NCBI GenBank assembly: GCA_965204375.1
Contig: OZ241986.1
Location: forward strand, 1,664,001-1,728,000
Length of the DNA stretch: 64,000 nt
Source of the DNA: Candidatus Latescibacterota bacterium
Lineage (GTDB): Bacteria > Latescibacterota > UBA2968
Direction: 5' to 3'
Shown: positions 4,834 to 49,836 of the stretch, in pieces
Numbering within the stretch: the first letter of the stretch is position 1
Layout: the number at the start of each line of letters is the position of its first letter
The notes under the pieces: generated by a model
What the model saw: only the letters and a program-made list of their open reading frames with translations
The model's database searches: none
Told to the model about the DNA's origin: nothing
Translations under genes and position numbers: made by a program

Positions 4834-4946
4834 GTACTCATTTTTCGGTTGTCTCTGTCACCCAAGTATTGTACATTCGCAGGGACAACACCGACGCGAT
4901 GGCGTGTAATTTTGACCGAGAGGTGGTTTGTTATGGTGGGAAAAAA

Positions 4947-29985: not shown

Positions 29986-30021
29986 TAAGTCATGATCCAA
30001 AAAACATTGCGGGAGGTCAAT

Positions 30022-33000: not shown

Positions 33001-33312
33001 ATCTCTGATAATTCCAAACTACGTGGGAAGGAAAAGGATTACAAAGAGGGTATTTACCCATCACCCAATCCCTTCAATTCTACAACTGTATTGGGTTTTT
33101 ACACTACAGGAGGCCCTGTTTATGTGACTATATATAATATTCTGGGACAACCTATCAGACGATTGGTTCAGCAGCATTTGCCAGCCGGATATTATCGGCG
33201 TATATGGGATGGTAAAAGTGACTCTGGTGTATCTGTGGGTTCTGGAATCTACATCGTCCTTCTAAAAGACAGCGAAGCGACATTTACCCAGCGCGTCGCG
33301 CTCTTGAAGTGA
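30022..33312 (+). CDS. Secreted protein with five lamin-tail-like domains, an Ig-like (Big_2) domain and a C-terminal FlgD-Ig/sorting-like domain
   Basis: Signal peptide; five I.EI...D.N.DG...DEF(I/V)EL.N.....DLSG..L.D repeats; W.S.DT.V Big_2 pattern; PNPFNSTT...IYNILGQ.IR.L...WDG C-terminus. Confidence 0.85.
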   Translation: MMRYGIIVVMLGVLLLAHVTVAQGSDKLSGLQIEEILADPPSGEKGDANGDGVRDTYTDEFIELVNKGNDSIDLSGYLLSDDDVAHENMFPFPTGTVLAPGERFVLFGGGNPQGIPGLVYTDDGRIGNGLTNTKDVILIIDPVAGDTLLSVGYDTKVKDQSLVQKNGTWIGHSTQNGRGLFSPGKPRSLFDKIESLPEYVDLIAGESISLIPAIYSYETGETKRIEDEVLWVSWDTTVVRIEHGDRVVAVRAGETKVGFLWNGRESLHTYIRVLEKEKPPLVISEVHPNPAWGDAGDTNGDGVRHTYQDEFVEVANMSKQPIDIGGYFLGDDDVSADRLFRFPDNTVLDTQAVVVLFGGGDMPVSGRVFADDGRIGDGLSNWSDTVQLLAPDSSTVVFSMTYERSTRGVSFVRDNNGNYVLHNEIYKEDSTSVGRLEPGDDPIEPEVLTDTLTVPDGIVFSEILMLPEQVDANNDGIVDRHADAFVELTNIGADTLNLSGWLLGDDDIMVSQFFSFPDNVVLVPGGYVTIFGGGTPMGISGTVLSAEGQIGNGLSSSGDVVHLIMSDGKTVARSVRVPKATPDVSWLFSSDEPPELHPQIPGRHAMSPGTSPDGQEATSIDTTALDIFQPPEGLVISEVYPNPAAGDAGDTNGDGGRHTYQDEFVEVANLGEYPIDIGGYFLGDDDVPVEKFFRFPDSTVLDTQAVVVLFGGGDMPVSERIFADDGRIGDGLSNGGDTVQLLAPDGSTVVSGMTYENARQGISFARDDNGNYLLHNQIYEGESTSVGRLGQGDDSIEPEELTVSDGLIFSEILMLPEKVDANNDGIVDRHADAFVELTNIGADTLDLSGWLIGDDDIVVSRFFSFPDDVVLAPSGYITIFGGGTPVDIPGTVLSAEGQIGNGLSSGGDVVHLIMPDSKTVARSVRVPKATPDVSWIFSPDEPPELHPKIPGKHAISPGTSPISEVKSDTLTGVDAVSGKPIVFDGEYQTINSPISDNSKLRGKEKDYKEGIYPSPNPFNSTTVLGFYTTGGPVYVTIYNILGQPIRRLVQQHLPAGYYRRIWDGKSDSGVSVGSGIYIVLLKDSEATFTQRVALLK
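30862..32903 (+). repeat. Intragenic tandem duplication (about 1 kb x2)
   Basis: About 30862-31856 aligns with about 31921-32903 at the DNA level, with long identical stretches. Confidence 0.85.
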
Positions 33313-35078: not shown

Positions 35079-35152
35079 GGTGAGGGAAGAGGTCTCGCAT
35101 CCCCCTATAGGCGGTTGGGCTGGTTGATCCAACCGCTAAATTTTGCCGTATA

Positions 35153-35169
35153 TGGGAACACTATTTGCA
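35153..35169 (+). promoter_or_regulatory. Putative sigma54 promoter for the RND-ABC operon
   Basis: TGGGAACACTATTTGCA has GG(35155-6)-N10-GC(35167-8) with TTGCA at -12, about 46 nt before ATG 35215. Confidence 0.45.
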
Positions 35170-35214
35170 AATTTCAGGTCTAATCGTTGGCAAAGCACAA
35201 TGAGGGATGTATTG

Positions 35215-36108
35215 ATGGTCATTCGCATTTCAAATCTGACAAAAGTATATCGCCGTGGCGCGGTTCCCGCCTTAGACGATGTCACATTGACCATTCCGCA
35301 CGGAACATTTGGTCTGCTGGGCCCCAATGGTGCAGGCAAGACAACGCTGATTAAAATTTTATCGACTCAGATGGACGCATCGAGCGGCAGTGTGACCATG
35401 GATGAGTTCGACCTCGTAAAAGACCGCACTGAAATTCGCCGGCGCCTGGGATATTTACCCCAACATTTTGGGACGTATCCGCAACTGACTGCCTGGGAAT
35501 TTCTCGATTATATGGCTGTTTTAGGCGGCATGCATAATAGAAGTTCGCGTTTGAATCGCGTGGAACAAGCTCTAAACGAAGTCGGATTGTACGAAGCGCG
35601 CAATCGGCGCTCGGGCACGTTTTCAGGTGGCATGATGCGCCGCCTTGGCATTGCACAGACCATTTTGACCAATCCAGAATTTCTCATTGTCGATGAACCC
35701 ACCGTAGGACTTGACCCGGAAGAGCGCATACGGTTTCGGGGTATTTTGGGACGCTTGAGCAGCGATCGCGCAATTTTGATTTCCACGCATATTGTGGGCG
35801 ATATTTCGAGCACCTGCGAAGATCTCGCGGTCCTGGATACCGGACGGCTGATCTTTCGCGGTTCTCCCGGAGAACTCATTTCCAAAGCCGATGGCAAAAC
35901 GTGGGAAGTACAGGTCGATGACGCTGGCTTTGAAATGCTGTCGCGCGTGTTTCGCGTAGTCACAGTAAATGTTGAAGGCGATCTGATGCGTCTGCGTATG
36001 GTGGGCGATGGCGAGCCTCCCGCTGATGCCGAAGCAGTCGCGCCCAATCTCGAAGATGCCTATGTCTATTTTGTCGGAGGCGATACCACAGGCGAAATCG
36101 CCGCGTAA
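35215..36108 (+). CDS. ABC-2 type (DrrA-like) ATP-binding protein
   Basis: GLLGPNGAGKTT, GYLPQ, FSGGM, IVDEPTVGLDP, STH, P.LEDAY. Confidence 0.95.
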   Translation: MVIRISNLTKVYRRGAVPALDDVTLTIPHGTFGLLGPNGAGKTTLIKILSTQMDASSGSVTMDEFDLVKDRTEIRRRLGYLPQHFGTYPQLTAWEFLDYMAVLGGMHNRSSRLNRVEQALNEVGLYEARNRRSGTFSGGMMRRLGIAQTILTNPEFLIVDEPTVGLDPEERIRFRGILGRLSSDRAILISTHIVGDISSTCEDLAVLDTGRLIFRGSPGELISKADGKTWEVQVDDAGFEMLSRVFRVVTVNVEGDLMRLRMVGDGEPPADAEAVAPNLEDAYVYFVGGDTTGEIAA

Positions 36109-36120
36109 AGGATTAATGCC

Positions 36121-39100
36121 ATGTTATCTATTTGTTACAATGTATGGGGCGTTGCGCGTTATGAGCGCAAAATGCTCTTGAGAACCACAAAATTCCGTAT
36201 TTTGGGCGGCCTGGGGATGAGCATTCCCGTTTTGCTCGGTATCGGCTTTGCCATAGCAGAAGCCAACGGTGCTGAACTGCCCGTGGGAATTGATTCTTAT
36301 GTTCCATTTTTAGTGTACAGTTTCTTGCAGACCATTGTCATAGCATTTATTGTAGGGGATTTTAGAGCGGCGGATGAACAGGCGCATATTTACGAAGTCG
36401 TGGCCGGGCGGCCCATTTCCACTGCAGAACTGGTTGCGGGTAAGTATCTGGGCATTGTTAGTGCGCTTGTCTTTTTGAGCCTGGGCGTTCTGCTTTTAAC
36501 CCTGAGTATCCAGGCTGCAAAAATCAGCATGACGGGTAATCCATTTACAATAAAACCCTATATCAGCTACCTCGTGCTCATGAACCTGCCCGCCCTGATT
36601 TTTATGTCTTCTGTGACATTTTTTCTGGGGGCAGTGTTGCGACGGCAAGCTGCAGTTGCCCTGATTGTGATCGGGTACTTGTTGGCCGTCTTGTTATTCC
36701 TGGGCAGGCGATATGACGGCATCTACGACTTTGGTGCTTTTTTTACGCCTCTGTATTATTCCGATCTGATTGGTCTGGCAGATATTACGCAAGTGGGGCT
36801 AAAACGCCTGTTTTACATCTTGCTCGGCATTGGATTTTTTGGGTTTTCAATTGATTGGTATCCCCGCCTTGCGCATTCCATAGTCGCGCGGTGGTTTGGT
36901 CGCGGCTGCGCGTTGACCGGTTTTGGTCTGGCTGTGGGCCTTTACTTCTATATGGGTGCAGAGGCACAAGAAGGGAAAGCGTATCGCCAGTCTCTGCTCG
37001 AGCAACAGGAAGCGGTTGCGAATATTCCCGTCGCGGAAATAACCCATTACGATCTGGCATTGACGCTTTTGGGAGAGGAACCGCTTGCTGCCTCTGGCAC
37101 GATTAGATTGAAAAATTCCAACGAAGTCCCGCTCGATACGCTGATCCTTTCGCTCAATCCCGGATTAAAAATCCAGAGCCTGACGCGCGGCGATGGCGGC
37201 ACAATAGCGTGGGAGCGGATGGGAAGCGTGATCCGCGTTGTGCCTACTAACCCCCTGCAATCGGAGCGAGAACTCGATCTGACATTGGCTTATGCGGGTG
37301 ATATTAACACGGAAGGTTTTGACCTCAAACGGGAAAAAGCCAGACCGAAGTTACGCAAACGCGAAGGGCCATTTGGAATATTTAATAAAGGCTCTCTGAC
37401 GGCGTGGATTCGCGACAATTCCATCTTCTTGCCTCCGCGCAGCCGATGGTATCCGGTAACGGGCGTTGATTACGGCTATGAAGATACGCGCGCGGTTTCC
37501 TTTTCAACGGCAAATTTACAAATAACATACCCGCAAGGCATTGAAGTCATTACTCAGGGGCAGGTCGGCAAGACCGATACACTCGACACACAGATAACGC
37601 GCCAATGGACTGTTGAAAAACCCGTGCCTGTCCTATCGCTGAATGCGGGCGAATACCGCGTTTACCGCGCGATCATTCACGACGTCGAATGCGCCCTTTA
37701 CGCCCATCCATCACATCTGCGTCCAGTCCGATTTTTTGAAGGTGCCGAAGAAGAGATTTTGCGCGCACTCGGGCAAATTATGGACGCAATGGAACAGGAA
37801 TCGGGCATGAAATATCCCTATGCCAGTCTTTCTCTGGTGGAAATCCCCTTCCATGTTCAATGGTATTACGAAGGCTGGGAAGAAAAGGGCGGTTTGACGC
37901 AGCCCGGTGTGTTAATGATAGAAGAAGATGTGTTCATGAGGCAGCAATTCACCCGCGATTTCAAGCGCTATCAGGAGCGCTCGCGCGGCAACCGTGAACC
38001 CAAAGATATTAAAAAGGATCTTTTGGTACGCGCGGTTTTTTCGACCTTCTTTTCCAGAGAGGGAAATTCGGGCAGACAGGGACAACCAGGCGGATTGTTT
38101 CGCAGCCCAGTTGTTCAACTCTGGGCTTATGACAAGCAGTTTGTGGGCGACCACCATGCCTTGCTCAAAAAGGGCATGCCCCTGTATCTCCAGAATGATT
38201 TGAGCACCGATATGACCTCTGCGTTTTATTCGAGCCAACGACGCGGTGGCGGGCGTGGTGGACCCGGAGGGCGCGATGGTCCCGGAGGACGCGGTGGACC
38301 CGGAGGGCGCGGCAGGACAGCTGGTGGTGGGGCTGCCTGGGATACGTTGATCGCGAAAATGCAACGCAAGTCATTTGCCGATTTAAATCCCGAAACGCAA
38401 GCCGGCCTCTATCGCCAGGTTCTCGACGCCAAGGGACCCGCACTTTTTCAAATGATGGAATCTTTTTTGGGTGAGGAAACATTTCGCACGGTCTTAGACG
38501 ACATAGACCACAATCACAAATACGAAAACATCGATTTTTCCACCTTTGAACGCGCTGCTGTGGGCGATACCACAGAAAGTGACGAGAGCCAAAAATTGCA
38601 GCGCCTCGTCAACGACTGGATTTTCAGTACAGAAATCCCGGGCTATACCCTTACAAGGGTAAAAGCACTGAAGATGGACGACGGCTTTGGGATGGTGGTC
38701 TATCAATTGATTCTGCGGATAAAGAATAGCGAACCGGGCCGGGGATATGTGCAAATTACAGCTACGGGCCGGGGCGATGAAGCCCTAAAAGGCGTAGAGA
38801 TTGAAGGTGGACAGGAAATTGAAGTCTCGATGGTTTTGTGGGAGCAACCATTCAGGGTGATGGTCGAACCCTTTTTTGCGCGCAATCGGCGACCTCTTAT
38901 GTCCCCCGTGCGCGTCCCCGAAGATGTCACAGAGGGCTTTCCCGTTGCTTATGTCAAAGACGTGACGGGCGAAGAGTCCGGTCCTGTTGAGATTATTGTA
39001 GATAATGACGACGACGGATTCTCAATGCCCGTGCGACGCGCAACGCGCTACTTCCGCCCGGGACTCAAAGGCGGCAACTGGCGCGAGCAGGGCTCGCCAA

Positions 39101-39606
39101 TGGCCTTTGGGCGATTTGAGACAAATTTTCGAATGAAACATCCGGGCGATGGGGCACAGCCGGCTGTGTGGACAGCGCAAATCCCCAAAGACGGCGAGTA
39201 CGATGTGAGCTTCTTTTTTCCCGATCCCTCAATGGCCAGGCGCATGCGCGTCGGATCGAATTTTATACTCACTATTTTTCACAGCGGCAAAGCCGATACC
39301 CTCGAAATGGAGCGCGACCAGATGAAAGCGGGATGGAATTATCTGGGGCGATACAAATTTGCCGAGGGCGAAGAAGCCGTAGTCGAATTGTCCGACCGAG
39401 CAGAAGGGCGTGGGCGCCTGTATGCCGATGCTGTACGATGGCGCTTTTTTGACCCGGAAAACCCCGATGCCTACGAAGATGAAATGCCCACCTTTATGTT
39501 TCGCGGTCGAGGTGGACCAGGTGGCGGGCCTGGGGGGCGCGGCGGCGGGGATGGTAGGCGAGGTTCCGGTGGTGGCAGAGGTGGCGGCGGGTTGTTGGGC
39601 TTTTAA
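36121..39606 (+). CDS. ABC-2 permease fused to an M1-aminopeptidase-like fold (no HExxH) and a Golvesin/Xly-CBD-like domain
   Basis: N-terminal TM bundle (RPIS..E...GK.LG); HYDL.L, WYP, YPY..L..VE.P and KG......lG...F M1-like elements; IIVDN.D.GF...W...G.Y.V...GWNYLG.Y.F...ADAVRW C-domain; Gly/Arg-rich inserts. Confidence 0.75.
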   Translation: MLSICYNVWGVARYERKMLLRTTKFRILGGLGMSIPVLLGIGFAIAEANGAELPVGIDSYVPFLVYSFLQTIVIAFIVGDFRAADEQAHIYEVVAGRPISTAELVAGKYLGIVSALVFLSLGVLLLTLSIQAAKISMTGNPFTIKPYISYLVLMNLPALIFMSSVTFFLGAVLRRQAAVALIVIGYLLAVLLFLGRRYDGIYDFGAFFTPLYYSDLIGLADITQVGLKRLFYILLGIGFFGFSIDWYPRLAHSIVARWFGRGCALTGFGLAVGLYFYMGAEAQEGKAYRQSLLEQQEAVANIPVAEITHYDLALTLLGEEPLAASGTIRLKNSNEVPLDTLILSLNPGLKIQSLTRGDGGTIAWERMGSVIRVVPTNPLQSERELDLTLAYAGDINTEGFDLKREKARPKLRKREGPFGIFNKGSLTAWIRDNSIFLPPRSRWYPVTGVDYGYEDTRAVSFSTANLQITYPQGIEVITQGQVGKTDTLDTQITRQWTVEKPVPVLSLNAGEYRVYRAIIHDVECALYAHPSHLRPVRFFEGAEEEILRALGQIMDAMEQESGMKYPYASLSLVEIPFHVQWYYEGWEEKGGLTQPGVLMIEEDVFMRQQFTRDFKRYQERSRGNREPKDIKKDLLVRAVFSTFFSREGNSGRQGQPGGLFRSPVVQLWAYDKQFVGDHHALLKKGMPLYLQNDLSTDMTSAFYSSQRRGGGRGGPGGRDGPGGRGGPGGRGRTAGGGAAWDTLIAKMQRKSFADLNPETQAGLYRQVLDAKGPALFQMMESFLGEETFRTVLDDIDHNHKYENIDFSTFERAAVGDTTESDESQKLQRLVNDWIFSTEIPGYTLTRVKALKMDDGFGMVVYQLILRIKNSEPGRGYVQITATGRGDEALKGVEIEGGQEIEVSMVLWEQPFRVMVEPFFARNRRPLMSPVRVPEDVTEGFPVAYVKDVTGEESGPVEIIVDNDDDGFSMPVRRATRYFRPGLKGGNWREQGSPMAFGRFETNFRMKHPGDGAQPAVWTAQIPKDGEYDVSFFFPDPSMARRMRVGSNFILTIFHSGKADTLEMERDQMKAGWNYLGRYKFAEGEEAVVELSDRAEGRGRLYADAVRWRFFDPENPDAYEDEMPTFMFRGRGGPGGGPGGRGGGDGRRGSGGGRGGGGLLGF
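38257..38310 (+). repeat. 3 x 18-bp coding repeat (GGPGGR/DGPGGR)
   Basis: GGTGGACCCGGAGGGCGC / GATGGTCCCGGAGGACGC / GGTGGACCCGGAGGGCGC. Confidence 0.8.
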
Positions 39607-39618
39607 TTTAACGGAGGA

Positions 39619-40692
39619 ATGGACGTGAAGTTTGATTTTTGCTCAAAATTTCTGTTGGTAATTGTCCTTTGTGGGATAGTCGCCTGTGATCAACAGGCGG
39701 AACAGCGCACCGTTGACCTGACGGTTCCCGTTACTGTTCAATCCGTAGAGACGGGAACAATCGAATCTATAGTGACAGCTACCGGAACACTCAGACCCGT
39801 GCGCGAAGCCCAGATCACGACGGAGATTCGGGGAAATCTGTACTGGAGCAAAGGGAGTAATAACCGCTTGCTCGCCAAGGGATCAGAGGTTAGAAGGAGG
39901 CAGACTATAGCCAGGCTCGACAGCGACGAATGGGTTGTTGGCGCACGGGTGGAAGCGCGCAAACTGGCGGTTGAAACAGCCAAGCGAACGCTAAAAGAGC
40001 AGGAAACTCTGTTTAGCCGACAACTGGCAACGGAAATGGACGTTGAAAGTGCGCGTAGAGCCTGGGCCGATGCAGAAGCCAATTATCAGGATGCCCTCAT
40101 CAAGATCGATAAAACCAAACTTTTAGCCCCCATTCAGGGCGTGCTATCGGAACTTGCGGATATTACGCAGGGAACGCTGGTGACTCCAAATACCGCAATC
40201 GCAAAAATTATGGATTATTCACAGGTATTTGTGGATCTGAAAATTCCCAATGCCCAGATTATTAACGTGAAATTGGGCCAAGGCATCCGCGTGAGTAATT
40301 ACGCTTTGCCCGAAGAAGTTTTTGAGGGCGAGATTGTCGAGATGGATCCCGCCATTGATCCGGTCACGCGCACGGTTCAGGTCGTCGGAATGGTCGATAA
40401 TCCCGACTTGTTGTTGCGGGCGGGCATGTTTGTAAAAACGGAAATCGTCACGGAATCGCGGCAAAATGTCGTACTTATTGCGCGCAATCTCGTTTTGCGG
40501 CGCAGAAATCAGAAGGTCGTTTTTATCGAAGAAGAAGGCCGCGCGCAACAACGCGAAGTCGAAACAGGTCTGGAAGACCGCGAGCGCGTGGAAATTGTGG
40601 TCGGCCTTGAACCGGGAGACCAATTGATCACGAGCAATTACGAAACACTGAGGCCGCGCACCCGGGTGCGGGTCACGGGAGATAGCCGATGA
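39619..40692 (+). CDS. RND periplasmic adaptor (membrane fusion protein), probable lipoprotein
   Basis: IVA-C lipobox, G..V...Q.IA.LD, helical hairpin, APIQG, P.IDP.TRT, L.AGMF, GL..GD.LI. Confidence 0.93.
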   Translation: MDVKFDFCSKFLLVIVLCGIVACDQQAEQRTVDLTVPVTVQSVETGTIESIVTATGTLRPVREAQITTEIRGNLYWSKGSNNRLLAKGSEVRRRQTIARLDSDEWVVGARVEARKLAVETAKRTLKEQETLFSRQLATEMDVESARRAWADAEANYQDALIKIDKTKLLAPIQGVLSELADITQGTLVTPNTAIAKIMDYSQVFVDLKIPNAQIINVKLGQGIRVSNYALPEEVFEGEIVEMDPAIDPVTRTVQVVGMVDNPDLLLRAGMFVKTEIVTESRQNVVLIARNLVLRRRNQKVVFIEEEGRAQQREVETGLEDRERVEIVVGLEPGDQLITSNYETLRPRTRVRVTGDSR

Positions 40693-43600
40693 ATTTGCCG
40701 GAATTTTCAACGCGATATCCCGTGACAATTGCCATGGCGACCCTCGCGGTGGTATTGCTTGGATGGATATCGCTAGACGGTCTGGGCACCGATCTCTTGC
40801 CCGATTTGCAGACGCCTGTCGTCACCATAGACCTGGCAGCACCGGGCAAATCGCCTGTCGAGATCGAAGAAAGCTATACGCGCCGCCTCGAGCGCGACGT
40901 GAGCACGATTAATGGTGTCAAGCGCGTGTATTCGATTACCCGCTCGGGACAAGCCGTAGTCATTGCGGAATTTGCCTGGGATGCGGACATGGATTACGGG
41001 TTGCTCGACGTACAAAAAAGAGTGGGTCGCTATGCGGCGAATGAAGATGTGTCGCAGTTGGATGTGACACGAGAAGACCCGCTCGCACTCGCAGTGATGC
41101 GCATTGCGATTACAGCAGACGAAAACACGGAACTCGACGCACTGATGGGCACGGTAGAATTGCTGATCAAGCCCAAATTGGAGGCCCTCGAAGGCGTGGC
41201 GTCTGCTGAAGTGGAAGGGGGAGCAGAAAAGGAAGTGCGCGTTTCGCTCGACCCCTATTTGCTCGAAGCGTTTGGGCTTTCACCCGATGCGGTCATCAAT
41301 CGCATCGCACAGGCAAATGCCGATGTATCCGGAGGTACGCTCAGAGAAAATCAGCAGTCGTATCTGGTCAAAGCCCTCGGTCGCTTAAATGACATAAACG
41401 ATGTGCGGGAAGTCATCGTGGGAGAAAAGCGCGGGGGAGGAGGCACGGTTTCTGGAGATCGCGTGCCGGTGCGCGTGCGCGACGTGGGCACGGTTGATCT
41501 GGAATATCAAGAGCGAGAAACCATTGTACGCCTCAATGGACGGGAATGCGTTGGCCTCGCCATTTACAAAGAAGCCGGCAGCAATACAGTCGCCGTGGTC
41601 AATACGGTATTGGATGCGATAGACGATATCGAAGCAGATCTGAGCGGCATGCGGTTTACAACCGTCGAAAATCAGGCGCGATTTGTCGAAGACGCCATAG
41701 GTGAAGTCGAAACATCTGCCATTCATGGGGCAATTTTGGCAATTTTCGTGCTTTTGATCGCGTTGCGAAGTTGGACGGTGACGCTGGTGATTGCGTTGGC
41801 GATTCCCATTTCCGTATTGGCGACGTTCTCGCTCATGTACTTTGAAGGGCTGTCCCTGAATATTATGACGCTGGGCGGATTGGCCCTGGGCGCGGGCATG
41901 CTCGTTGACAATGCCATTGTGGTCATTGAAAACATTTATCGCCATCTCGAAAGTGGCGAGGATGCGCGCACAGCATCGAGTCGCGGAGCCTCTGAAGTCG
42001 GCGTGGCAATTCTGGCCTCAACGCTGACGACCGTGGCTGTTTTTTTGCCCATTGTCTATTTGCAGGGGCTGGCGGGCAAACTCTTTGTGGATCAGGCGTG
42101 GACAGTAGCATTTTCGCTGCTGTCATCACTGGTTGTGGCAATGACGACGATTCCGATGCTGACGTCGCGTATTTTCAGGCGGCTGAATACCACGCGTCAC
42201 ACGACCATTCGGTCGGACAAATACTATCGGTTTCTCAATGGTGTTTTGAACCGCAAACTCATCATGCTCGGCGTCGTGCTGCTCATTCTGGGTGGGACGG
42301 GATATATCGCCCGCGAGTTGCAGACCGAATTTATCCCACGCGAAGATCAGGGGCTGTTTCAAATTGACCTCACATTGTCCGAAGGCTCGCGTGTGGAACT
42401 GAGCGATCAGGTCGCCCTGCACGCCAAGGAGATTGTCGAAAGCGTTGGCGGAAGCGATGTGGCACATGTGTACGCACTGGTCGGCCTCAATCCCGCTCTG
42501 GTATCGAGCGGAGGCGAACCAACGGGTCCCAATCGCGCGACCCTATCGGTGGCTTTGCACACACAGCGGTCGCGCAGCGTCAGCGAGTTGGTGCGCGATC
42601 TGGATCCCATTTTGAGTGCCATGCCCGATATCGAGGTGAAATACAAGTTACACGAAACCGCGCTCGAAGGCGTGATGGGAGGGCAAGAAGCGCCCATTCA
42701 GGTCGAAGTGTCTGGGGAAAATCTCGATATTTTGGCACGCATCACAAAAGAGCTTCAGACGAGGATCGAGGATCTGCCTTCGGTGTACAATGTGCGCACG
42801 AGTTTTCAAGGCGGACAGCCAGAAATCGATCTGGCGATTCGCGATGAAGTGGCATCGGCTTTTGGACTGACTACCCAGACCATCAGCCGCACATTGGAAA
42901 GACAACTGTCGGGTGAAGTTGCCGGCGAATTGTCAAAAGACCAGCGCACGAGGGATATCCGCGTGAAATATCGAGATATGGACCTGCGCGAACTCCACAC
43001 CATGCAAATCGAAGGATCAGATGGCGCGATCCTGACATTGGGGGATATTGCCGAACTCAATATTATTGAAGGTCCCCGCGAAATTTTGAGAGAAAATCAG
43101 CAGCGCGTGGGGCGCATTACGGGCTATCTCACAGAAGGGCGCATTTTAAGTGAAGCCATTGCCGACGTACGCGCCATCATGCAGGAAATGGTTGTGCCGT
43201 CCGGGTATCGCGTTGAAATTGGCGGGGAAGAGCGCGAACGCGCGGCGTCATTTGAAAGTCTCAAATTCGCACTCCTGCTTTCAATTGTTCTGGTCTATAT
43301 GGTTATGGCATCGCTGTTTGAATCCACGCTCCATCCGTTCACCGTCATGTTTTCCGTTCCCTTAGCTGGCGTCGGCGTAATATTTGGATTCTATCTTTTG
43401 GGCGAACCGCTCAGTGTAATGGCCTATATCGGCATTATTATGCTGGGTGGTATTGCGGTCAACGATGCGATTGTGCTCGTGGATCGCATCAACCAGCTCC
43501 GGCAAGCTGGCTTGACGCTGCGAGAAGCAATTCTCCAGGGTGGTCAAGACCGCTTGCGCCCCATTATGATGACGAGTGCGACGACCATTCTCGCTCTGCT

Positions 43601-43754
43601 GCCCATGGCACTCGGCTTTGGCGAGGGGGCAAAATTGCGCGCGCCTATGGCGATTGCCGTCATTGCCGGATTGGTGACATCGACATTGATGACCTTACTC
43701 GTGATACCCACCATGTATGAACTAATTGATCGACTTCGGGGGAAATCCGCGTGA
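40689..43754 (+). CDS. AcrB/AcrD/AcrF family RND permease
   Basis: SLNIMTLGGLALGAGMLVDNAIVVIENI, STLTTVAVFLP, GIAVNDAIVLVD, RLRPIMMTS.TT, APMAIAVI.GL. Confidence 0.95.
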   Translation: MNLPEFSTRYPVTIAMATLAVVLLGWISLDGLGTDLLPDLQTPVVTIDLAAPGKSPVEIEESYTRRLERDVSTINGVKRVYSITRSGQAVVIAEFAWDADMDYGLLDVQKRVGRYAANEDVSQLDVTREDPLALAVMRIAITADENTELDALMGTVELLIKPKLEALEGVASAEVEGGAEKEVRVSLDPYLLEAFGLSPDAVINRIAQANADVSGGTLRENQQSYLVKALGRLNDINDVREVIVGEKRGGGGTVSGDRVPVRVRDVGTVDLEYQERETIVRLNGRECVGLAIYKEAGSNTVAVVNTVLDAIDDIEADLSGMRFTTVENQARFVEDAIGEVETSAIHGAILAIFVLLIALRSWTVTLVIALAIPISVLATFSLMYFEGLSLNIMTLGGLALGAGMLVDNAIVVIENIYRHLESGEDARTASSRGASEVGVAILASTLTTVAVFLPIVYLQGLAGKLFVDQAWTVAFSLLSSLVVAMTTIPMLTSRIFRRLNTTRHTTIRSDKYYRFLNGVLNRKLIMLGVVLLILGGTGYIARELQTEFIPREDQGLFQIDLTLSEGSRVELSDQVALHAKEIVESVGGSDVAHVYALVGLNPALVSSGGEPTGPNRATLSVALHTQRSRSVSELVRDLDPILSAMPDIEVKYKLHETALEGVMGGQEAPIQVEVSGENLDILARITKELQTRIEDLPSVYNVRTSFQGGQPEIDLAIRDEVASAFGLTTQTISRTLERQLSGEVAGELSKDQRTRDIRVKYRDMDLRELHTMQIEGSDGAILTLGDIAELNIIEGPREILRENQQRVGRITGYLTEGRILSEAIADVRAIMQEMVVPSGYRVEIGGEERERAASFESLKFALLLSIVLVYMVMASLFESTLHPFTVMFSVPLAGVGVIFGFYLLGEPLSVMAYIGIIMLGGIAVNDAIVLVDRINQLRQAGLTLREAILQGGQDRLRPIMMTSATTILALLPMALGFGEGAKLRAPMAIAVIAGLVTSTLMTLLVIPTMYELIDRLRGKSA

Positions 43755-46700
43755 CACTTGCTGGTATTGCCGTTCGGCGGCCCGTGACCACGGCCATGTT
43801 TTTTCTTGGTCTGGCTATTTTAGGCGCGATTTCACTGGATCGGTTGCCCGTTCAGATATTTCCCGAACTCGTTCGCCCGGAAGTCTTTATCACAGTTACT
43901 CAGCAGGGCTACTCGCCCGAGCAGGTCGAGCGGGAATTGGTGATGCCCGTCGAGGGAGAAGTAGGCAAACTTGAAGGCATTGAGGCGTATGAGTCCTTTT
44001 CTCGTCAGAACAATGGCCAGATACGCATTTCTTACGCGCCCAATACGGATATGAAATTCGCTCTGTTGCAGCTCGAGAGCCGCATCACGCGCCTGCAATC
44101 GCTTTTGCCCGAAAGAACGCGGGTCAACATACAGCGCTTTGATTCCTCTGATCTGAGTGCCTCGGTGATGCAAATCCACGTGCTGGGCGAAGGCGATATA
44201 AACTGGCTACGCGAATTTGCCGAGGAGAAAATCAGGCCAGAATTGGAAGCGGTCGATGGCGTTGTCAACGCGCAGGTCCTGGGCGGGCAAAGGACAGCTA
44301 TTGAAATTATTGTCGATCCATTGATGCTGCAGGCGCACCAGCTTGCGATGTCTGATGTTCGCAATCGCATCAATGCTTTTAATACGCGGCGGCAATATCT
44401 CGGGCGGGTGTACGACGGCGACCAGGCTTATGCGGTCAGCATTCAGGGGCAATTTACAGACCTCGTGCAAATCCGCAGAGTCGTTATCAAACCCGAATTG
44501 CCCCTGCATCTGGGCGACATTGCCCAAATTCGCTACGGCCTTCAGGAGCGTACAGATCTGCAGCGCATCAATGGCAAACCCGCCGTTGGCATTCGCATTC
44601 AAAAAGACGATGAAGCCAATCTCATCGAACTTGCAGGAGAACTCGAAGACACCATCGAACGCGTCAACCGCGATCTCGCCTATGAAAATATCCAGCTCGT
44701 GATCAGCCAGAATCTGGCAGAGATTATGAACGAAGCCCTCAATACCCTCAAACTGGCCGCTGTTGTCGGGGGATTGCTCGGGCTTTTTGTTTTGTTCTTG
44801 TTTTTGAGAAATCTGCGTTTTGTCGCTGTTTTGCTCCTCGCCATTCCGTGTTCTTTGCTGCTCACATTCAATCTGATGTATATGTGGGATCTCAGTTTGA
44901 ATGTGCTCTCGCTGTGTGGCCTCGCGCTTGCAATTGGTATGTTGATGGACAACAGCATCGTGGTCATGGAAAATATCTTCAAGCATTTTGAACAGGGTAA
45001 ATCCCCCAAAGAAGCCGCAAAAGCCGGAACCGATGAGGTTGCACGCGCCGTTGTTGCGGCTACAGCGACTACGATTACGGTTTTTTTGCCCGTTGTTTTT
45101 ATTCAAAGCGATTTTCAGGATATCCTGCGGGAACTCGCGTTGTCCATGGTATTTCCGCTGCTTGCCTCTCTCCTTGTCGCGCTCACACTCGTGCCTGCCC
45201 TCGCATCGAAAACCCTTTCTCTCACATCTCGACCACCGACGGAAACAGGCGTATTGATCGAGATGTACACCGTATGTCTCAAAGCGGGCTTGCGCCATAG
45301 AATCAGCGTGTCACTGGGCATTGCCGGCGCGCTTGTCGTCACGCTGATCATTTCTTTTTTCTTTATGCTACAACAGGATATCCGCCAGGAAGAAAGCCGT
45401 TTTACCGTCTATATCAGCATGCCTGAAGGCACGACTATTGAAGCCCTCGATGCTGTTGTTGGCGAAATTGAAAGTGCTGTGCGAGATCTCAAAGGTATAG
45501 ATCGCTTTACGACCAGTATCAGCGAAACCCAGGCGAGTATCAATGTGGAGCTTTTGCCCTTAGCCGAACGCCCCGACCAGATTTCTGTCGATCTCATCAA
45601 GGAGAATCTCGAAGAGTCATTCGGTGATGTCCAAAATGCAATTGTGAGTTATGAGGCCATCGCGCGTACGGGTAGGGGAGGTGGTGGTGGCCGAGGCGGT
45701 GGGGGAGGCGGCGGTATTCGAGGCACCCGCCAGGCATCTGGTGGATTCAATCTGGAAGGGGGCACCCCTTCGGAAATGGCTGTAATTCGCGGCTATGATT
45801 TCACGGTGCTTCAAATGCTTGCCGACGATCTGGTCTATCGCCTCGAAGAATTGGAGGAACTCGATCCCAATAGCGTGCAGGCCGATGCAGAACGCGGCGC
45901 ATCTGAAGTGCATGTTTTGCCCGATGAAGAAGTGATGTTTGATCGGCGATTGCAGGTTCGCCAGGTGCTCAATGCAGTATCCGACGCCAATCCGCGCGGT
46001 GCGCGGTCCAATATCGCATTTCTCACACCCGAAGGTGTGGAAATCCCGATTGATATTCGCAATGTTGAAGATCCCGAAGAAGAAGGGGAAGGCATTGCGG
46101 GCTTGAGACAGACGCCGATTCTGGGTACGGGGGGGACGTACATTCCCCTTGTGGAAGTTTCGCATGTGCGCCGGGATCAGGGCAGGAGCATGATTTTGCG
46201 CACCAATCAATCGCGGCGCGTAATTGTGTCCTATCGCTTCGCCGACGAAATTTTGCAATCTCAGCCTCTGCTGGAAGCCTCCCGCGATTATGTGCAAGCT
46301 GTGGTCTCTGAAATGGTACTTCCCGAAGGGTATAGTATCGAAATGATCGAGGCAGAGGAAGAGACGATTTATTACTGGATGCTCGGCATTGCTGCACTGC
46401 TCATTTTTATGATTTTGGCCTCTTTGTTTGAATCGCTTTCTGCGCCTTTGATTATTCTGTGTACGTTGCCCACGGCAATTATTGGATCGTGCTGGGCCCT
46501 GGTCTTATCGGGTACGGGATTGACCCAACAAGAAGGCCCAATGGCACTGTTGGGATTTATTGTTTTGCTCGGTATTGCCGTCAACAATGGGATCGTGCTG
46601 ATCGATGCGATTGGAACCCTTCGCAATCGCCGCGGATTCAGGCGAGAACGCGCGGTGCTCGCGGCGAGTCGGTCGCGTGTGCGCCCCATTTTAATGACTT

Positions 46701-48478
46701 CAGCGACCACCATTTTGGGCGTTTTGCCTCTGGCACTCACGTTTGGCGGCGATTACGAAATTTGGCCGCCCTTTGCGATTACGGTGCTGGGGGGAATGGC
46801 GGTTTCAATGGTATCTACCCTCGTATTTATACCCGTGATGTACATGGGAATTGACCAGATCAAAGCCTGGTTGGCGGATATTGGCTGGTTCGGGATCGTA
46901 TTGGGGACGGCAGCCGCTGCGGGATTGACGTATTGGGTTGACGATTATTACCAGAGTTTGTTCTGGACCTGTCTTTTGGCATTGCCGGCGTGGATGTTGT
47001 GTATGAGCGTGGTCTGGATTGTGCAACGCATTTATCGCGCGCGTATGGCTTCTCTTGCTGAGATCGGGAATATTGAATATCTCGAAATTCGCAATCTGAC
47101 AAAAATTTACGGCGCGCCGGGGCGGTTTAAGCACGAATGGGATCGCTTCAAGCGCCGCAATCAGCGCCTTTTAGAGCGCGGACAGGTATTGGTAGATAAA
47201 AAGGCGATTCGAGATAGTTTGTGGTGGAAGTTACCACTTGTGGTACTTTTGATCTATTTAGAAACCTATTTTGAACAGGGATCCTGGATCTTTTTGACGG
47301 GGCTTGCTATATGGGGTCTTATACATCACCTTGTGCTTTGCGCGGCAGCTTTGCGCGATTTTCAGATTGAGAACAGATGGATATCACAAATCGCCCAATT
47401 GATTTTGCCGCTGGTCTTTGTCGCCTTTATCCATTGGCGTTTGGAACTTATATCTTTGACTATAGCCACTTCTGCAATCTACTTTCTCTATCGCATCATC
47501 GGATTTTTGGCAAATCGCGTCGCACGAGGTCGCGTTGATCCCGAACATATACCGGGAAAGTTGGGCCCTGTAAAAGGCATTGTGTACCGCGGTGCTGCAG
47601 CCGTTCCCCTGATTGGCGTTCCCCGTCCGCAATTTCAGGCTCTCGGCGGTGTGAGTCTCGATATACCACGCGGCATGTTTGGCCTTCTGGGTCCCAATGG
47701 CGCGGGCAAGACCACGCTGATGCGAATTGTCTGTCGGGTTTTGTCGTCAAATTACGGATCTGTGCTCGCCAATGGCAAAATACCGCTTACACATCGGAAT
47801 ATGCAGGGGGTGATTGGATATTTGCCGCAGCACTTTGGCCTGTATCTTCACATGTCTGCGTATAATTATCTGGAATACCGCGCGCTTTTGGAGGGATTTA
47901 AGGACGGGGTGGCACGGCGCAATCGCGTACAGGAATGTCTGGAGCAGGTCAATCTGTGGGATAGGCGCGACGATCCGATCGGTTCATTCTCCGGCGGTAT
48001 GAAACAGCGTGTGGGTATTGCACAAACTCTGTTGCACTTGCCGCAAATTATTGTGGTGGATGAACCGACAGCGGGATTGGATCCACTCGAGCGAATCCGG
48101 TTCAGAAATTTGCTGGCGCGATTTAGCCAGGAAAAGATCATTATTTTTTCCACGCATATTGTGGAAGATATTTCGGGCAGTTGCAACCAATTGGCCGTGC
48201 TGAATCACGGTAAGCTGCTTTATACGGGAACCCCGATTGAGATGCGCGATTTGGCGCGCGATAAGGTGTGGGACGCCCTGCTACCAGATCAGCGCTTTGA
48301 AGCGTTAGAACGCGATCTGGATATGATTACGCATGTGCGCGTACCCGATGGGATTCGAGTGCGATTTCTCGCCACTGATCCCATCCCAGAAGCATGTCCA
48401 GTTACGCCCACCCTCGAAGATGCGTACCTCTACCTTTTGCGACATGGCGATGAATACAAACAGTCTAACATGGCGTGA
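43751..48478 (+). CDS. RND permease fused in-frame to a C-terminal ABC ATPase domain
   Basis: One 1575-aa ORF: full RND ([23 protein letters not shown]), extra TM helices, then [36 protein letters not shown], STH. Confidence 0.92.
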   Translation: [1575 protein letters not shown]

Positions 48479-49178
48479 GTTGCTCTTTTTCGTCGGAAAG
48501 ATGCACAGCCTGAGCATGAGAATCGTTTTTCACCGCAAAATGATTTTTATGTTCGGCGGAATTGTGGCGTATTACGCAATTTTGTACGCAATTGCAATCT
48601 GGCGTCCAGGCGAGGGGTTTTCAGTTGAGCAAGCCCTCCATGTATTGGTCGAAGTGCCGGGGACAGTGCTTGCAATTTATATGACGATGGATCTGGTGTC
48701 GGGGGAGAGGGATAAGGATACGCTTGAGATTTTGTTCAGCACGGCGATCAGCCACTATGCGACGTGGTCTGTGAGAATTGTGTCGATCAGCGCTGCACTA
48801 TTTGCCACGCTGATGGCAATGAGCACGATTTCCTACTATTTTTTCGCGGAGTTCCCCTATGTCCTGGGGGGATTGAATGCCTGTATTCCCGCCTTTTTTA
48901 TGGTGGGAGCCACATTTTTGTTTTCTGTTTTGTGTCGCAGTGGGAATGCGGCAGGTATGCTCGCTGTTGGGCTTTTGATTGCGATTTTGCTTTCTACCGA
49001 GACGTTTGAAGATACATCGTATTACCTTTTTCTCAAGCCATTTGATCCGCCTTCAGATTTAGATACCAGCCTGTGGGTAAATCGCGTAGTCTTAAACCGC
49101 ACGGGCATTGCCATTCTCGGTATATTGTTCATTTTTCTGGCTCTGAGACGAATGATAGAGCGCGAAAAGCTACTGTGA
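48444..49178 (+). CDS. ABC-2 type permease-like membrane protein
   Basis: About 6 hydrophobic helices; E.D..TLE.LFS motif typical of ABC-2 permeases; overlaps the previous gene's end. Confidence 0.8.
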   Translation: MAMNTNSLTWRELLFFVGKMHSLSMRIVFHRKMIFMFGGIVAYYAILYAIAIWRPGEGFSVEQALHVLVEVPGTVLAIYMTMDLVSGERDKDTLEILFSTAISHYATWSVRIVSISAALFATLMAMSTISYYFFAEFPYVLGGLNACIPAFFMVGATFLFSVLCRSGNAAGMLAVGLLIAILLSTETFEDTSYYLFLKPFDPPSDLDTSLWVNRVVLNRTGIAILGILFIFLALRRMIEREKLL

Positions 49179-49314: not shown

Positions 49315-49836
49315 ATGAATAAAAATGTCGCCTATTCCGAGACCTCATGGCCGTTCATCCTTCCTGCGATTTTACTGTATTTGGCTATTGCTATAATAGT
49401 CGTTTATTTTAAGGGACTGGAATTTAGAACTTATTTGGCTATCGCTATTATATTTGTAGGAAGTTGCTATATGTTTCTGCTTTACTGGCGTTACGCAATT
49501 CAGATAGACGATACAACAATCTCGTTTGGTTATCACTTTACCGGAAAAGAAAAAGTTTTATTGAATACAATTGAGTATGCTGAGATTCTCATCTTTGATC
49601 GAAAAAATCCTACCACACGCTTCGGCATTAATAGATTGGGAGGGCCTCCTGTTCGGTTGACGGGGAGGTTGATCAGGTTGAGATTGAATGAAGAATACCT
49701 TACCCGGTATAAACTCAAGCGAAAAAAGAAGGTGAAACAATTAGTACTTGTATCGAGAAAGCCCGAATCGGTTTTGTCCGTGCTATCAGAAAAAGGCGTT
49801 CCAGTGCAACGGATGCAACGGCAAAGAACTGAATAA
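49315..49836 (+). CDS. Hypothetical membrane protein (2 TM helices plus a bacterial PH-like domain)
   Basis: Two hydrophobic helices, then I.ID...I.F, I....I, SRKPE; AT-rich. Confidence 0.6.
   Translation: MNKNVAYSETSWPFILPAILLYLAIAIIVVYFKGLEFRTYLAIAIIFVGSCYMFLLYWRYAIQIDDTTISFGYHFTGKEKVLLNTIEYAEILIFDRKNPTTRFGINRLGGPPVRLTGRLIRLRLNEEYLTRYKLKRKKKVKQLVLVSRKPESVLSVLSEKGVPVQRMQRQRTE

Follow-up and report, generated by a model that had tools for sequence, protein, structure and literature searches.

Predicted membrane hairpins within the ABC ATPase domain of a bacterial RND permease fusion

Introduction

The ABC ATPase domain (NBD) is among the most studied protein modules and, to our knowledge, its connection with the membrane has always been described either as a non-covalent contact via coupling helices or as one covalent join at an end of the domain. 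RND pumps, which are proton-driven, and ABC pumps, which are ATP-driven, form the two main superfamilies of efflux pumps. A gene in which both are joined lies in a window of 64,000 nucleotides from Candidatus Latescibacterota bacterium (contig OZ241986.1, positions 1,664,001 to 1,728,000), which is the whole stretch of DNA analyzed here. An earlier note on this window had claimed that the NBD of the encoded protein is interrupted by a membrane domain of about 170 aa, which parts the first strand and the A-loop Tyr from the rest of the domain, and had suggested alignment with a free paralog, AlphaFold modelling and comparison with homologs as checks. The locus raises the question of whether an ABC ATPase domain is really split in this way, what the inserted segment is, and with which transporter the NBD works.

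Architecture of the fusion protein

The fusion gene (ORF 43751-48478, on the forward strand like all features below) is open for 1575 codons and encodes a protein of 1575 aa. Its first part, aa 1-1035 (43751-46855), has the 12-TM architecture with two large periplasmic loops that characterizes RND permeases, and matches Pfam ACR_tran (PF00873) with 604 bits against a cut-off of 28 and NCBIfam RND_permease_2 over aa 6-1035. This part is 30% identical to an unfused RND paralog of 1021 aa encoded upstream (40689-43754; ACR_tran 778 bits), whose stop overlaps the start of the fusion gene. The AcrB-type proton relay, which we take to be two Asp in TM4, a Lys in TM10 and an Arg in TM11, was not found in the fused RND part, which has DN in TM4 and NN in TM10 compared with DD and KN in the AdeB-like chain 7b8p_A; the Arg of the motif RVRPILMT is retained in the same alignment. 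The TM4 and TM10 relay columns are at least 90% conserved in the fusion family, and the unfused paralog has DN in TM4 and ND in TM10 (AVNDA). Proton coupling is possible, as one TM4 Asp is kept in both paralogs and a TM10 Asp in the unfused one.

Profile matches and motifs strongly indicate that the protein ends in an ABC ATPase domain of the GldA/DrrA/NosF (ABC-2) type, which fills its C-terminal third and is catalytically complete. Pfam ABC_tran (PF00005) matches aa 1300-1441 with 91.1 bits (cut-off 25). Walker A, Q-loop, signature, Walker B with the catalytic Glu, D-loop and H-loop (FSTHI) are all present; Walker A, the Q-loop, the SGGM signature, DEPT of Walker B and STH of the H-loop are invariant among 86 aligned sequences. 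The best NCBIfam matches are GldA (167.6, cut-off 402.6) and DrrA (152, cut-off 312.45), implying that the NBD resembles both and is a member of neither equivalog; no NCBIfam model attains its cut-off with the fused NBD. Foldseek matches of the NBD include 4yer, NosF and LptB.

Displacement of strand 1

The NBD is split in its primary sequence, with strand 1 and the A-loop Tyr standing far ahead of the remaining domain. These elements occupy aa 1110-1121 (47078-47113; placed by AF2, conservation and alignment with the free paralog), the motif stretch itself covering aa 1111-1121 (47081-47113). Strand 2 begins at aa 1297 (nt 47639) and Walker A lies at aa 1314-1322 (47690-47716), so that strand 1 and its Tyr are 194-203 aa away from Walker A; the rest of the NBD (strand 2, Walker A, Q-loop, signature, Walker B and H-loop) and a C-terminal domain take up 47639-48475. 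The interval 47075-47720 given in the earlier note brackets the split feature, from strand 1 to the end of Walker A at nt 47716, and its estimate of the insert length agrees with the 175 aa measured between G1121 and A1297 (aa 1122-1296, 47114-47638).

Comparison with homologs gave the same picture throughout the family. The strand motif lies 195-288 aa upstream of Walker A in all 121 fused proteins (the query and the 120 relatives listed) and at the usual place in none. In ordinary relatives, including the free paralog of the same operon, the motif starts 31-33 aa before Walker A; a strict strand pattern was found at this distance in 17 of 32 loci, the other 15 comprising the three fused loci and 12 with looser versions recognized by eye. 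Strand 1 with its A-loop aromatic, normally about 25-33 aa upstream of Walker A, is hence present in the fused protein without being contiguous with the domain. Among the 86 sequences, K1118 never varies, and L1116, T1117, Y1120 and G1121 each reach a conservation of at least 90%, the strand motif being one of the most conserved stretches apart from the catalytic motifs. The tight motif [LIV]x[LIVF]xxL[TV]Kx[YF]G occurs once in the real protein and in none of 2000 shuffles. A loose version is expected 0.64 times per shuffle and on its own proves nothing; the decisive argument is the conservation of the motif rather than shuffle statistics.

The free paralogous ATPase (35143-36108; ABC_tran 109 bits), in which strands 1 and 2 are uninterrupted and joined by a loop of 6 residues, was aligned with the fused protein by BLASTP at 45% identity (123/274) only from about aa 1292 on, and a separate 10-residue segment aligned strand 1 of the one with strand 1 of the other. 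In the fused protein, the NCBIfam models GldA, LptB, PQQ_ABC_ATP and galliderm begin to match only at their position 15-17 (aa 1296-1298), but in the free paralog they do so at position 1-3. An AF2 model of the C-terminal part (pLDDT 91.2, pTM 0.79), the one source of structural evidence, whose input was the same 86-sequence alignment that displays the conservation, has aa 1110-1120 (E81-91) as a strand, with a confidence of 96 for model block 81-90; there is no other strand before model residue 266, and all others are in the NBD. Since E81-91 is the sole strand outside the NBD in the DSSP string, its ladder partners must be NBD strands, which suggests that strand 1 would rejoin the sheet of the NBD, with Tyr1120 presumably stacking on adenine and the four helices forming a loop in the membrane. 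The AlphaFold check thus delivered the strand itself directly, and its partners in the sheet by deduction from the DSSP string. Taken with the conservation in 121 of 121 proteins, the NCBIfam offsets and the hydropathy described below, the main proposal of a membrane insert separating strand 1 and the A-loop Tyr from the NBD was upheld as far as these analyses reach.

A Foldseek search with the C-terminal model aligned only the contiguous NBD (273 columns for 4yer) and is therefore uninformative on strand 1. In a DCA map (142 sequences, effective number 90, 477 columns), which is noisy and has top pairs that look arbitrary, the best pairs of strand 1 with the NBD were 1112-1304 and 1114-1342; the couplings lie on strand 2 and on the next hairpin, at ranks 43 and 22, and they were not counted as evidence. 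Both pairs fall where the canonical fold predicts.

The inserted helices

Following a conserved GAPGRFxxEW, the insert opens with a basic amphipathic helix of 18 aa (aa 1125-1142, 47123-47176; AF2 helix 96-113 in model numbering), with a mean of 7.0 K+R per sequence and a Kyte-Doolittle (KD) value of -1.96; W1130 and R1135 in this region are at least 90% conserved among the 86 sequences. Next come TM15-TM16 (47198-47353; aa 1150-1173 and 1177-1201, AF2 helices 121-144 and 148-172), where W1159 is invariant, and TM17-TM18 (47363-47524; aa 1205-1231 and 1234-1258, AF2 helices 176-202 and 205-229), preceded by a loop that varies from 4 to 93 aa across the family and is K/R-rich where long. A conserved linker of roughly 38 aa (47525-47638) leads from TM18 to strand 2, with G1269 and Y1279 at least 90% conserved, P1286 invariant and a short helix, aa 1272-1283 (AF2 helix 243-254), bearing Tyr1279. 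The insert measures 167-260 residues across the family, and its commonest residue has a mean fraction of 0.48, versus 0.76 in the NBD core. A Pfam search of the insert at E values up to 10 gave no family, and an ESM Atlas search no usable match.

Where roughly four hydrophobic helices had been noticed earlier, AF2 placed exactly four, each of 24-27 residues and joined by turns of 2-3 residues. Their best 19-residue KD windows, from TM15 to TM18, are 1.29, 1.94, 1.76 and 1.62, compared with maxima of 0.94 elsewhere in the NBD and 0.99 in the periplasmic domains. Lys and Arg are concentrated in the helix before TM15, in the TM16-TM17 loop and after TM18, and the two short loops predicted to be periplasmic hold 0.0 and 0.1 K/R per sequence. 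Together with hydropathy and helix lengths, this charge pattern fits a predicted four-pass membrane loop with both ends inside. As two and four extra helices follow the cytoplasmic end of RND TM12, both pieces of the NBD would stay cytoplasmic. Strand 1 is not tight against the membrane, the basic helix and the linker lying in between, and the pinning of the NBD at the adenine loop put forward in the earlier note needs amending.

Profile comparison strongly indicates that the inserted helices are two copies of a TM hairpin, of which a third copy, TM13-TM14 (46841-47056), joins RND TM12 to strand 1 of the NBD. In hhalign, TM15-16 matched TM17-18 with Prob 87.3 and TM13-14 matched TM15-16 with Prob 77.8; TM13-14 against TM17-18 reached only 33. 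The known internal repeats of the RND part, used as positive controls, gave 94.4 and 61.9, i.e., the same range as the hairpin pairs, and the remaining 29 of 36 pairs did not exceed 13.7; none of 90 column-shuffled controls was above 4.9. The repeat signal (Prob 78-87) is moderate, and TM segments can yield spurious profile matches. TM13-14 consists of AF2 helices 2-38 and 41-73 (model numbering), with KD maxima of 1.56 and 2.09. With one hairpin before strand 1 and two after it, the NBD would hang from three homologous hairpins, and duplication of the tether hairpin TM13-14 is the most likely origin of the insert. A second, degenerate strand 1 that might be expected before strand 2 from duplication of a hairpin together with its strand (VKGIVYRG) was rejected, as AF2 makes this segment a helix and hhalign gives Prob 0.4.

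Three other explanations of the split domain may be considered. The insert might be a soluble or peripheral helical bundle on the surface of the NBD, a reading that draws on the only moderate hydrophobicity of TM15 (KD 1.29); it is very unlikely, as the three other helices score 1.62-1.94, well over every soluble segment, the long helices have tight turns, the charges obey the positive-inside rule, and the helices share homology with TM13-14, the direct continuation of RND TM12. Even less credible is that the upstream LTKxY strand is a relic outside the NBD, with the domain working without strand 1 or borrowing aa 1272-1283 with Tyr1279. Y1279 and P1286 are indeed highly conserved just ahead of strand 2, and VKGIVYRG faintly resembles the strand-1 pattern by eye, but in a relic K1118 would not stay invariant, nor four of its neighbors at 90% or more, among proteins that share as little as 38% identity; in the AF2 model, aa 1272-1283 are helical and aa 1110-1120 form a strand, and profile comparison of the two regions gives Prob 0.4. 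Y1279, 35 aa before Walker A, might nevertheless conceivably contact the nucleotide in place of Y1120. That the gene is an artefact, in which mis-assembly or a frameshift fused unrelated pieces, has no observation in its favor and is practically inconceivable, considering that the same unbroken architecture of about 1550-1650 aa is found in the 120 relatives listed, from many assemblies and several phyla, and that the fusion also occurs in three genome loci sharing gene order.

Distribution of the insert

Among the relatives listed, insert-bearing fusions occur in Latescibacterota, Gemmatimonadota, Acidobacteriota, KSB1, Calditrichota, Bacteroidales and Pseudomonadales. An exhaustive phmmer search with aa 1100-1300 against 1.84 billion representatives yielded 38 clusters; the 13 clusters longer than 1500 aa all measure 1559-1590 aa, and 22 are shorter than 900 aa. 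Five of the latter were inspected, together with four of the eight matches from a word-based search for shorter proteins. As candidates for free-standing NBDs with the insert, eight of these nine sequences were rejected as pieces, six of them starting inside the RND part or TM14, one after TM18, and one being a 123-aa piece of the insert. The other, P0145 (526 aa, starting with Met, with two TM helices and a split NBD), may be a free form or have a mis-called start. With P0145 as a possible exception, the insert is restricted, in the sequences inspected, to RND::NBD fusions of about 1560-1610 aa.

Operon context and the downstream permease

In the operon, the free ATPase is followed by a 1161-aa membrane protein (36121-39606) with an ABC-2/GldF-like N-terminus, a weak M1-peptidase match and a Golvesin_C domain (Pfam, NCBIfam), a membrane fusion protein serving as periplasmic adaptor (39619-40692; Pfam HlyD_D23 and HlyD_3), the unfused RND paralog and the fusion gene. 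Directly downstream lies a gene for a small membrane protein of about 240 aa resembling ABC-2/type V permeases (48444-49178; the start codon is uncertain, the ORF being open from 48333). Its Pfam scores are below the cut-offs (ABC2_membrane_2, 20.8 vs 27.2; ABC2_membrane_3, 17.4 vs 31.6), and NCBIfam gave no match. Its family comprises 97 homologs, some of which are named NosY-type permeases by JGI and some of which carry PF12698/PF12679 in precomputed annotation. The helix pattern of its AF2 model (pLDDT 79.5) would fit the fold of such permeases, in which an interface helix at the N-terminus is combined with six TM helices and a short helix lying between TM2 and TM3. The PDB matches listed for it are all ABC transporter chains (such as PmtCD, ABCG25, NosY and ABCG2; TM 0.42-0.59), and they are weak, the best having TM 0.55-0.59 and E values of 0.02 or worse, with none of 500 at E up to 0.001. 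The possibility that the insert is homologous to this permease was rejected (hhalign Prob at most 0.8).

A scan of genome contigs with patterns common to the whole NBD subfamily listed 80 loci; among those listed, the fusion occurs in three (L001, L002 and L008, closest relatives excluded), and the synteny sample is therefore small. In these three distant loci the permease gene directly follows the fusion gene, an unfused RND of 1031-1041 aa precedes it, and the adaptor gene has the same position. A Golvesin_C protein is also encoded upstream of the cassette in L002 and L008, and OMF genes lie ahead of it in L001 and L002. Gene order and the predicted fold make it likely that the ABC-2 (type V)-like permease is the partner of the fused NBD, and it is a more obvious mechanical partner than the RND domain.

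Discussion

We consider it reasonably probable that the split NBD, its hairpin scaffold and the ABC-2-like partner permease together form an ATP-driven exporter module inside an RND/adaptor pump. In such a module, the chain would run from strand 1 and the A-loop Tyr through the turn GAPGRFxxEW, the 18-residue basic helix, TM15-18 and the linker to strand 2 and Walker A. The NBD would work with the permease encoded directly downstream, whose short helix between TM2 and TM3 appears to sit where such permeases bear the coupling helix. The three hairpins may provide a fixed membrane scaffold that holds the NBD and the permease against the TM domain of the RND protomer, thereby building an ATP-driven exporter into the pump, and the module would most likely serve to carry substrate through the inner membrane, or to extract it from there, and pass it on to the RND stage. 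That nucleotide state also regulates the RND domain, as the earlier note had imagined, is possible but is a weaker reading than this one. RND pumps are trimers and NBDs act as dimers, a mismatch that counts against the exporter module. The NBD dimer might come about in a 2:1 heterotrimer that combines two fused protomers with one unfused RND, or the fused NBD might pair with the free ATPase paralog encoded in the operon. MdtBC is a B2C1 heterotrimer (PMC7015380), and this stoichiometry would offer a way to place exactly two NBDs per pump. Like the cassette, MdtB2C has two adjacent RND paralog genes behind one adaptor gene; in the cassette, the paralogs are just 30% identical and one bears the hairpin-NBD module.

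Two other ways of coupling deserve comparison with the exporter module. In the first, which we regard as unlikely, the hairpins would pack on the RND TM domain, and movements of the NBD would drive or gate the RND cycle, instead of or together with the proton-motive force. The covalent fusion of the NBD to the RND part through TM13-14, the lack of an AcrB-type relay in a part whose relay columns are at least 90% conserved, and the DN in TM4 of the unfused partner speak for such an arrangement; yet the TM4 Asp is kept in both paralogs and a TM10 Asp in the unfused one, and the NBD would have a conventional partner in the conserved ABC-2-type permease, which carries a putative coupling helix of its own. 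The second, a rather doubtful proposal, is a dual-energy efflux machine, in which an ABC-2 exporter is housed in an RND pump of 2:1 stoichiometry and ATP, acting through hairpin levers, compensates for or gates the reduced proton relay. Two RND::NBD protomers and one plain RND protomer would then place exactly two NBDs so that they meet under the trimer, and the three hairpins, of which two run through the loop between strands 1 and 2, would be rigid levers passing ATP-dependent NBD closure to the small ABC-2 permease and to the RND TM domain. If true, this would be a new means of energizing an RND transporter as well as a new class of NBD-TMD connection.

The closest precedent for the position of the insert is the regulatory insertion of CFTR NBD1 (residues 404-435), which lies at the same site, between strands 1 and 2, and shows that this loop tolerates insertion without loss of the fold. 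That insertion is described as about 30 residues long, soluble, largely disordered, phosphorylated and unique among solved NBDs, whereas the present insert has 167-260 residues, is ordered in the model, and comprises four predicted membrane-spanning helices and two structured linkers; at 175 aa, hydrophobic and confidently helical, the segment is not a CFTR-type regulatory insertion. In the exporters NosFY, PmtCD, ABCG, GldAF and DrrAB (ABC-2/type V), which resemble the fused NBD and the downstream permease by family and structure matches, the NBD either stands alone as a soluble subunit or is joined, in one piece, to a TMD of its own, and, unlike the fused protein, none is known to contain a membrane domain within its NBD or to be fused with an RND permease. 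ATPase heads of the SMC/Rad50 type are likewise built from two segments far apart in sequence with a large element looped out; there, the break separates the half with Walker A from the half with signature and Walker B, and a soluble coiled coil is looped out, whereas here it falls after strand 1 and a membrane domain is predicted. MacAB-TolC combines an ABC ATPase, a periplasmic adaptor and an outer-membrane channel, and the cassette is similar, with OMF genes in L001 and L002. In MacB, an uninterrupted NBD at the N-terminus is combined with four TM helices and a large periplasmic domain, and no RND component is known; by comparison, the periplasmic machinery of the cassette is the RND domain, and its extra helices have turns of only 2-3 residues outside.

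A full-text literature search, with subscription journals and TCDB outside its scope, found neither an RND-ABC fusion nor an NBD with internal membrane helices described, and the four-helix membrane insert is apparently an undescribed build of a very common domain. New here is the composition of the insert from two hairpin copies, with a third copy in TM13-14 and an ABC-2-like permease downstream. A membrane domain would thus be threaded through the NBD, in the loop beside the adenine-binding residue, in an arrangement that several phyla share; should the hairpins prove to transmit force or to set the geometry, they would represent a new type of NBD-membrane coupling. The RND-ABC fusion also makes the coordination of inner-membrane and trans-envelope efflux testable in one polypeptide, and this coordination is a long-standing question (reviewed in PMC4338810). 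Finally, annotation calls for caution, as sequence models recognize the NBD only from strand 2 and overlook the strand that has been displaced. Databases name these fusions just 'efflux RND transporter permease subunit' or 'ATP-binding cassette domain-containing protein'.

A nucleotide-binding domain split after its first strand

The 1575-aa product of the open reading frame at 43751-48478 (+ strand) matches both Pfam ACR_tran (604 bits) and ABC_tran (91 bits, aa 1300-1441), which makes it a fusion of an RND permease with an ABC ATPase domain (NBD). An earlier note on this DNA had claimed that the first strand and the A-loop Tyr of this NBD are parted from the rest of the domain by a membrane insert, and both its description of the split and its coordinates proved correct. 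The strand-1 segment occupies aa 1111-1121 (nt 47081-47113) and is followed by a gap of 175 aa, after which the strand-2 segment begins at aa 1297 (nt 47639), with the Walker A motif at aa 1314-1322. The alignment with the free ABC ATPase of the same gene run (35143-36108, +) falls into two blocks: 45% identity (123/274) is found only from about aa 1292 onward, while the ten residues of strand 1 of the free ATPase pair separately with the displaced strand 1.

Several lines of evidence place the displaced strand within the NBD fold. A search among long proteins with aa 1040-1575 yielded relatives of which 120 were listed (38-95% identity), all containing both ACR_tran and ABC_tran. A strand-1-type motif (...LTKxY) was present 195-288 aa before Walker A in the query and all of these relatives (121/121), 115 of them inside the first 260-aa span scanned and the other six at 262-288 aa. 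In an alignment of the query and 85 of the 120 relatives (the 35 omitted being mostly near-duplicates and fragments), K1118 was invariant, and L1116, T1117, Y1120 and G1121 were each at least 90% conserved; mean conservation was 0.69 for the strand-1 segment, 0.76 for the NBD core and 0.31 for the linker that precedes strand 1. Among the genome-scan loci listed, the strict motif of ordinary relatives began 31-33 aa ahead of Walker A in 17 of the 32 loci that could be scored, the remaining 15 comprising three fused loci and 12 with a looser motif at the usual place, as judged by eye. In addition, the NCBIfam models GldA, LptB, PQQ_ABC_ATP and galliderm matched the fused protein only from model position 15-17, at aa 1296-1298, so its contiguous part is without exactly the strand-1/A-loop positions; the same models matched the free paralog from position 1-3.

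Structure prediction agreed. An AlphaFold2 model of aa 1030-1575, built with the 86-sequence alignment (pLDDT 91.2, pTM 0.79), contained an 11-residue strand at model residues 81-91 (aa 1110-1120, pLDDT 96), and all other strands lay at residue 266 or later, inside the NBD. Because a DSSP ladder needs a partner and no strands exist elsewhere in the model, this segment must pair with an NBD strand, whose exact identity as sheet neighbour we infer from the model. Taken together, conservation, ordinary relatives, profile coverage and structure prediction strongly indicate that the displaced strand belongs to the NBD. A domain with its full catalytic set, broken behind strand 1, is likewise strongly indicated.

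The insert as a predicted membrane loop built of hairpins

The roughly four hydrophobic helices ascribed to the insert were recovered as TM15-TM18, of 24, 25, 27 and 25 residues in the AlphaFold2 model, with turns of 2-3 residues between them. Their best 19-residue hydropathy windows were 1.29 (TM15, the weakest helix of the insert), 1.94, 1.76 and 1.62, compared with maxima of 0.94 for the NBD and 0.99 for the periplasmic domains. Lys and Arg were concentrated at three places, namely the helix preceding TM15 (mean 7.0 per sequence), the start of TM17 and the stretch that follows TM18, and the two short loops predicted outside had 0.0 and 0.1 per sequence. The end of RND TM12 is established as cytoplasmic for AcrB-type pumps, and since two helices follow before strand 1 and four after it, both NBD pieces should be cytoplasmic. 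Positions near aa 1068, 1175 and 1232 are accordingly predicted to face outward, and those near aa 1140, 1203 and 1265 inward. Among the 142 sequences kept for the displaced motif, the insert measures 167-260 aa (median 178.5); most of this variation comes from the TM16-TM17 loop (4-93 aa), which is K/R-rich where long. The insert is strongly indicated to be a conserved four-helix membrane loop.

Profile-profile comparison of sub-alignments with hhalign (36 pairs, with 90 column-shuffled controls) gave a Prob of 87.3 for TM15-16 against TM17-18, 77.8 for TM13-14 against TM15-16, and 33.4 for TM13-14 against TM17-18. As positive controls, two pairs of internal repeats known from RND proteins scored 94.4 and 61.9; two overlapping pairs were trivially at 99, the other 29 of the 36 pairs did not exceed 13.7, and none of the 90 shuffled controls rose above 4.9. 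As the values for neighbouring hairpins are in the range of known RND repeats, the six extra helices (46841-47524) resemble, at the level of sequence profiles, a single TM hairpin present three times, copy 1 (TM13-14) and copy 2 (TM15-16) lying on either side of strand 1. Tethering of the NBD by three homologous hairpins is strongly indicated, and duplication of a tether already linking the RND domain to the NBD is the most likely origin of the insert. A decayed duplicate of strand 1 just before strand 2 was undetectable (Prob 0.4 in profile comparison). No Pfam family matched the insert at E ≤10, and the ESM Atlas returned nothing usable for it.

As regards the site, the nearest precedent is the regulatory insertion of CFTR NBD1; it too separates strand 1 from strand 2 but consists of about 30 soluble, disordered residues, whereas the insert described here has four predicted membrane helices. 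For an ABC head that is split in sequence, the nearest parallel is SMC/Rad50, in which a coiled coil is looped out and the break is at another place. A full-text literature search, with subscription journals and TCDB outside its scope, turned up no description of RND-ABC fusions or of NBDs that contain membrane helices. The fused proteins are already in public databases under generic names.

Distribution and gene order

With aa 1100-1300 as query, an exhaustive phmmer search of 1.84 billion representatives (E ≤0.001) found only 38 clusters, of which the 13 longer than 1500 aa all fell within 1559-1590 aa. Of nine shorter matches examined, eight were pieces (six starting in the RND part or TM14, one after TM18, and one a 123-aa piece of the insert). 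One match of 526 aa from a low-GC source (P0145) has a Met start, lacks the RND part and comprises two TM helices plus the split NBD with its displaced strand 1 and insert. Either the module exists here on its own, or the gene is truncated or mis-called. Source names among the relatives listed include Latescibacterota, Gemmatimonadota, Acidobacteriota, KSB1 and Calditrichota, to which the genome scan adds, among the loci listed, two Bacteroidales MAGs and one Pseudomonadales MAG (loci L001, L002 and L008). All three loci have the same gene order: adaptor, RND permease (1031-1041 aa), RND::NBD fusion (1567-1612 aa) and small membrane protein (231-239 aa). In L001 and L002 this series is preceded by an outer-membrane factor gene.

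In the window, the tight same-strand gene run spans 35143-49178, neighbouring stops and starts overlapping or lying at most 13 bases apart. Besides the free ATPase and the fusion, it encodes a 1161-aa membrane protein (36121-39606, +), a membrane fusion protein (39619-40692, +), an unfused RND permease of 1021 aa (40689-43754, +) and a small membrane protein (48444-49178 as used, +; open from 48333). The 1161-aa protein, whose gene comes after that of the free ATPase, has a weak ABC-2/GldF-like N-terminus, a weak M1-peptidase match and a Golvesin_C domain (Pfam, NCBIfam). The two ABC-2-type modules may belong to one system, because a Golvesin_C protein is also found farther upstream of the cassette in L002 and L008.

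The probable downstream permease and possible energy coupling

The small protein shares 19-24% identity with its counterparts in L001, L002 and L008, and has 97 homologs of about 238-241 aa, some labelled NosY-type ABC permease by JGI. Its model (pLDDT 79.5) shows an N-terminal helix and six long helices, with a short helix between the second and third. All PDB matches listed for this model were ABC transporter chains (PmtCD, ABCG25, NosY, ABCG2, ABCG5/8 and CcmABCD), at TM 0.42-0.59, with none reaching E 0.001. The fused NBD has its best structural matches in TM_1403, NosF and LptB, and its best sequence matches in GldA/DrrA, all below their cut-offs. The small permease is thus likely the partner of the fused NBD and, given its homology, model and PDB matches together with the NBD matches to ABC-2-type ATPases, the C-terminal module and this permease are read as a putative ABC-2-type exporter attached to an RND protomer. 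The permease ORF shares as many as 146 bases (48333-48478) with the 3' end of the fusion gene; its homologs (consensus M-LTWR) suggest a start a few codons past 48444, and no ATG is present there in the window.

The hairpins probably serve as a scaffold by which NBD and ABC-2 permease are anchored at the RND transmembrane domain, which would spatially couple the RND/adaptor step to ATP-driven movement across or out of the inner membrane. The mismatch between an NBD dimer and an RND trimer would be solved by a 2:1 heterotrimer, and equally could be solved by a heterodimer with the free paralogous ATPase. MdtB2C is such a 2:1 RND heterotrimer (PMC7015380). Cooperation between inner-membrane and trans-envelope pumps has been reviewed (PMC4338810), and the pairing of steps proposed here would be of the kind treated there.

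A direct driving or gating of the RND cycle by ATP is a minority reading and seems unlikely, though the reduced proton relay gives it some colour. The relay sites (44936-44965 and 46571-46600 in the fused RND; 41895-41924 and 43449-43478 in the unfused one) read DN in TM4 of both paralogs, and NN (fused) or ND (unfused) in TM10; the AdeB-like chain 7b8p has DD and KN. Both paralogs depart from the AcrB-type relay, and across the fused family these columns show conservation of 90% or more. Spatial coupling of an ATP-driven export step to the RND/adaptor step is preferred.

Other features of the window

The fused RND has a Gly/Arg-rich low-complexity stretch in its periplasmic part (aa 639-655, 45665-45715), where the family consensus retains a Gly-rich stretch, and the 1161-aa protein has two Gly/Arg-rich stretches (aa 707-733, 38239-38319; C-terminal aa 1128-1157, 39502-39591). 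A 173-aa ORF directly after the cassette (49315-49836), with no Pfam match, shows by eye two hydrophobic N-terminal segments. Elsewhere, and unrelated to the split NBD, are an AAA_15/AAA_21 ATPase (4797-6410), of a type often found in defence loci, and a 1106-aa protein with five lamin-tail domains (29992-33312).
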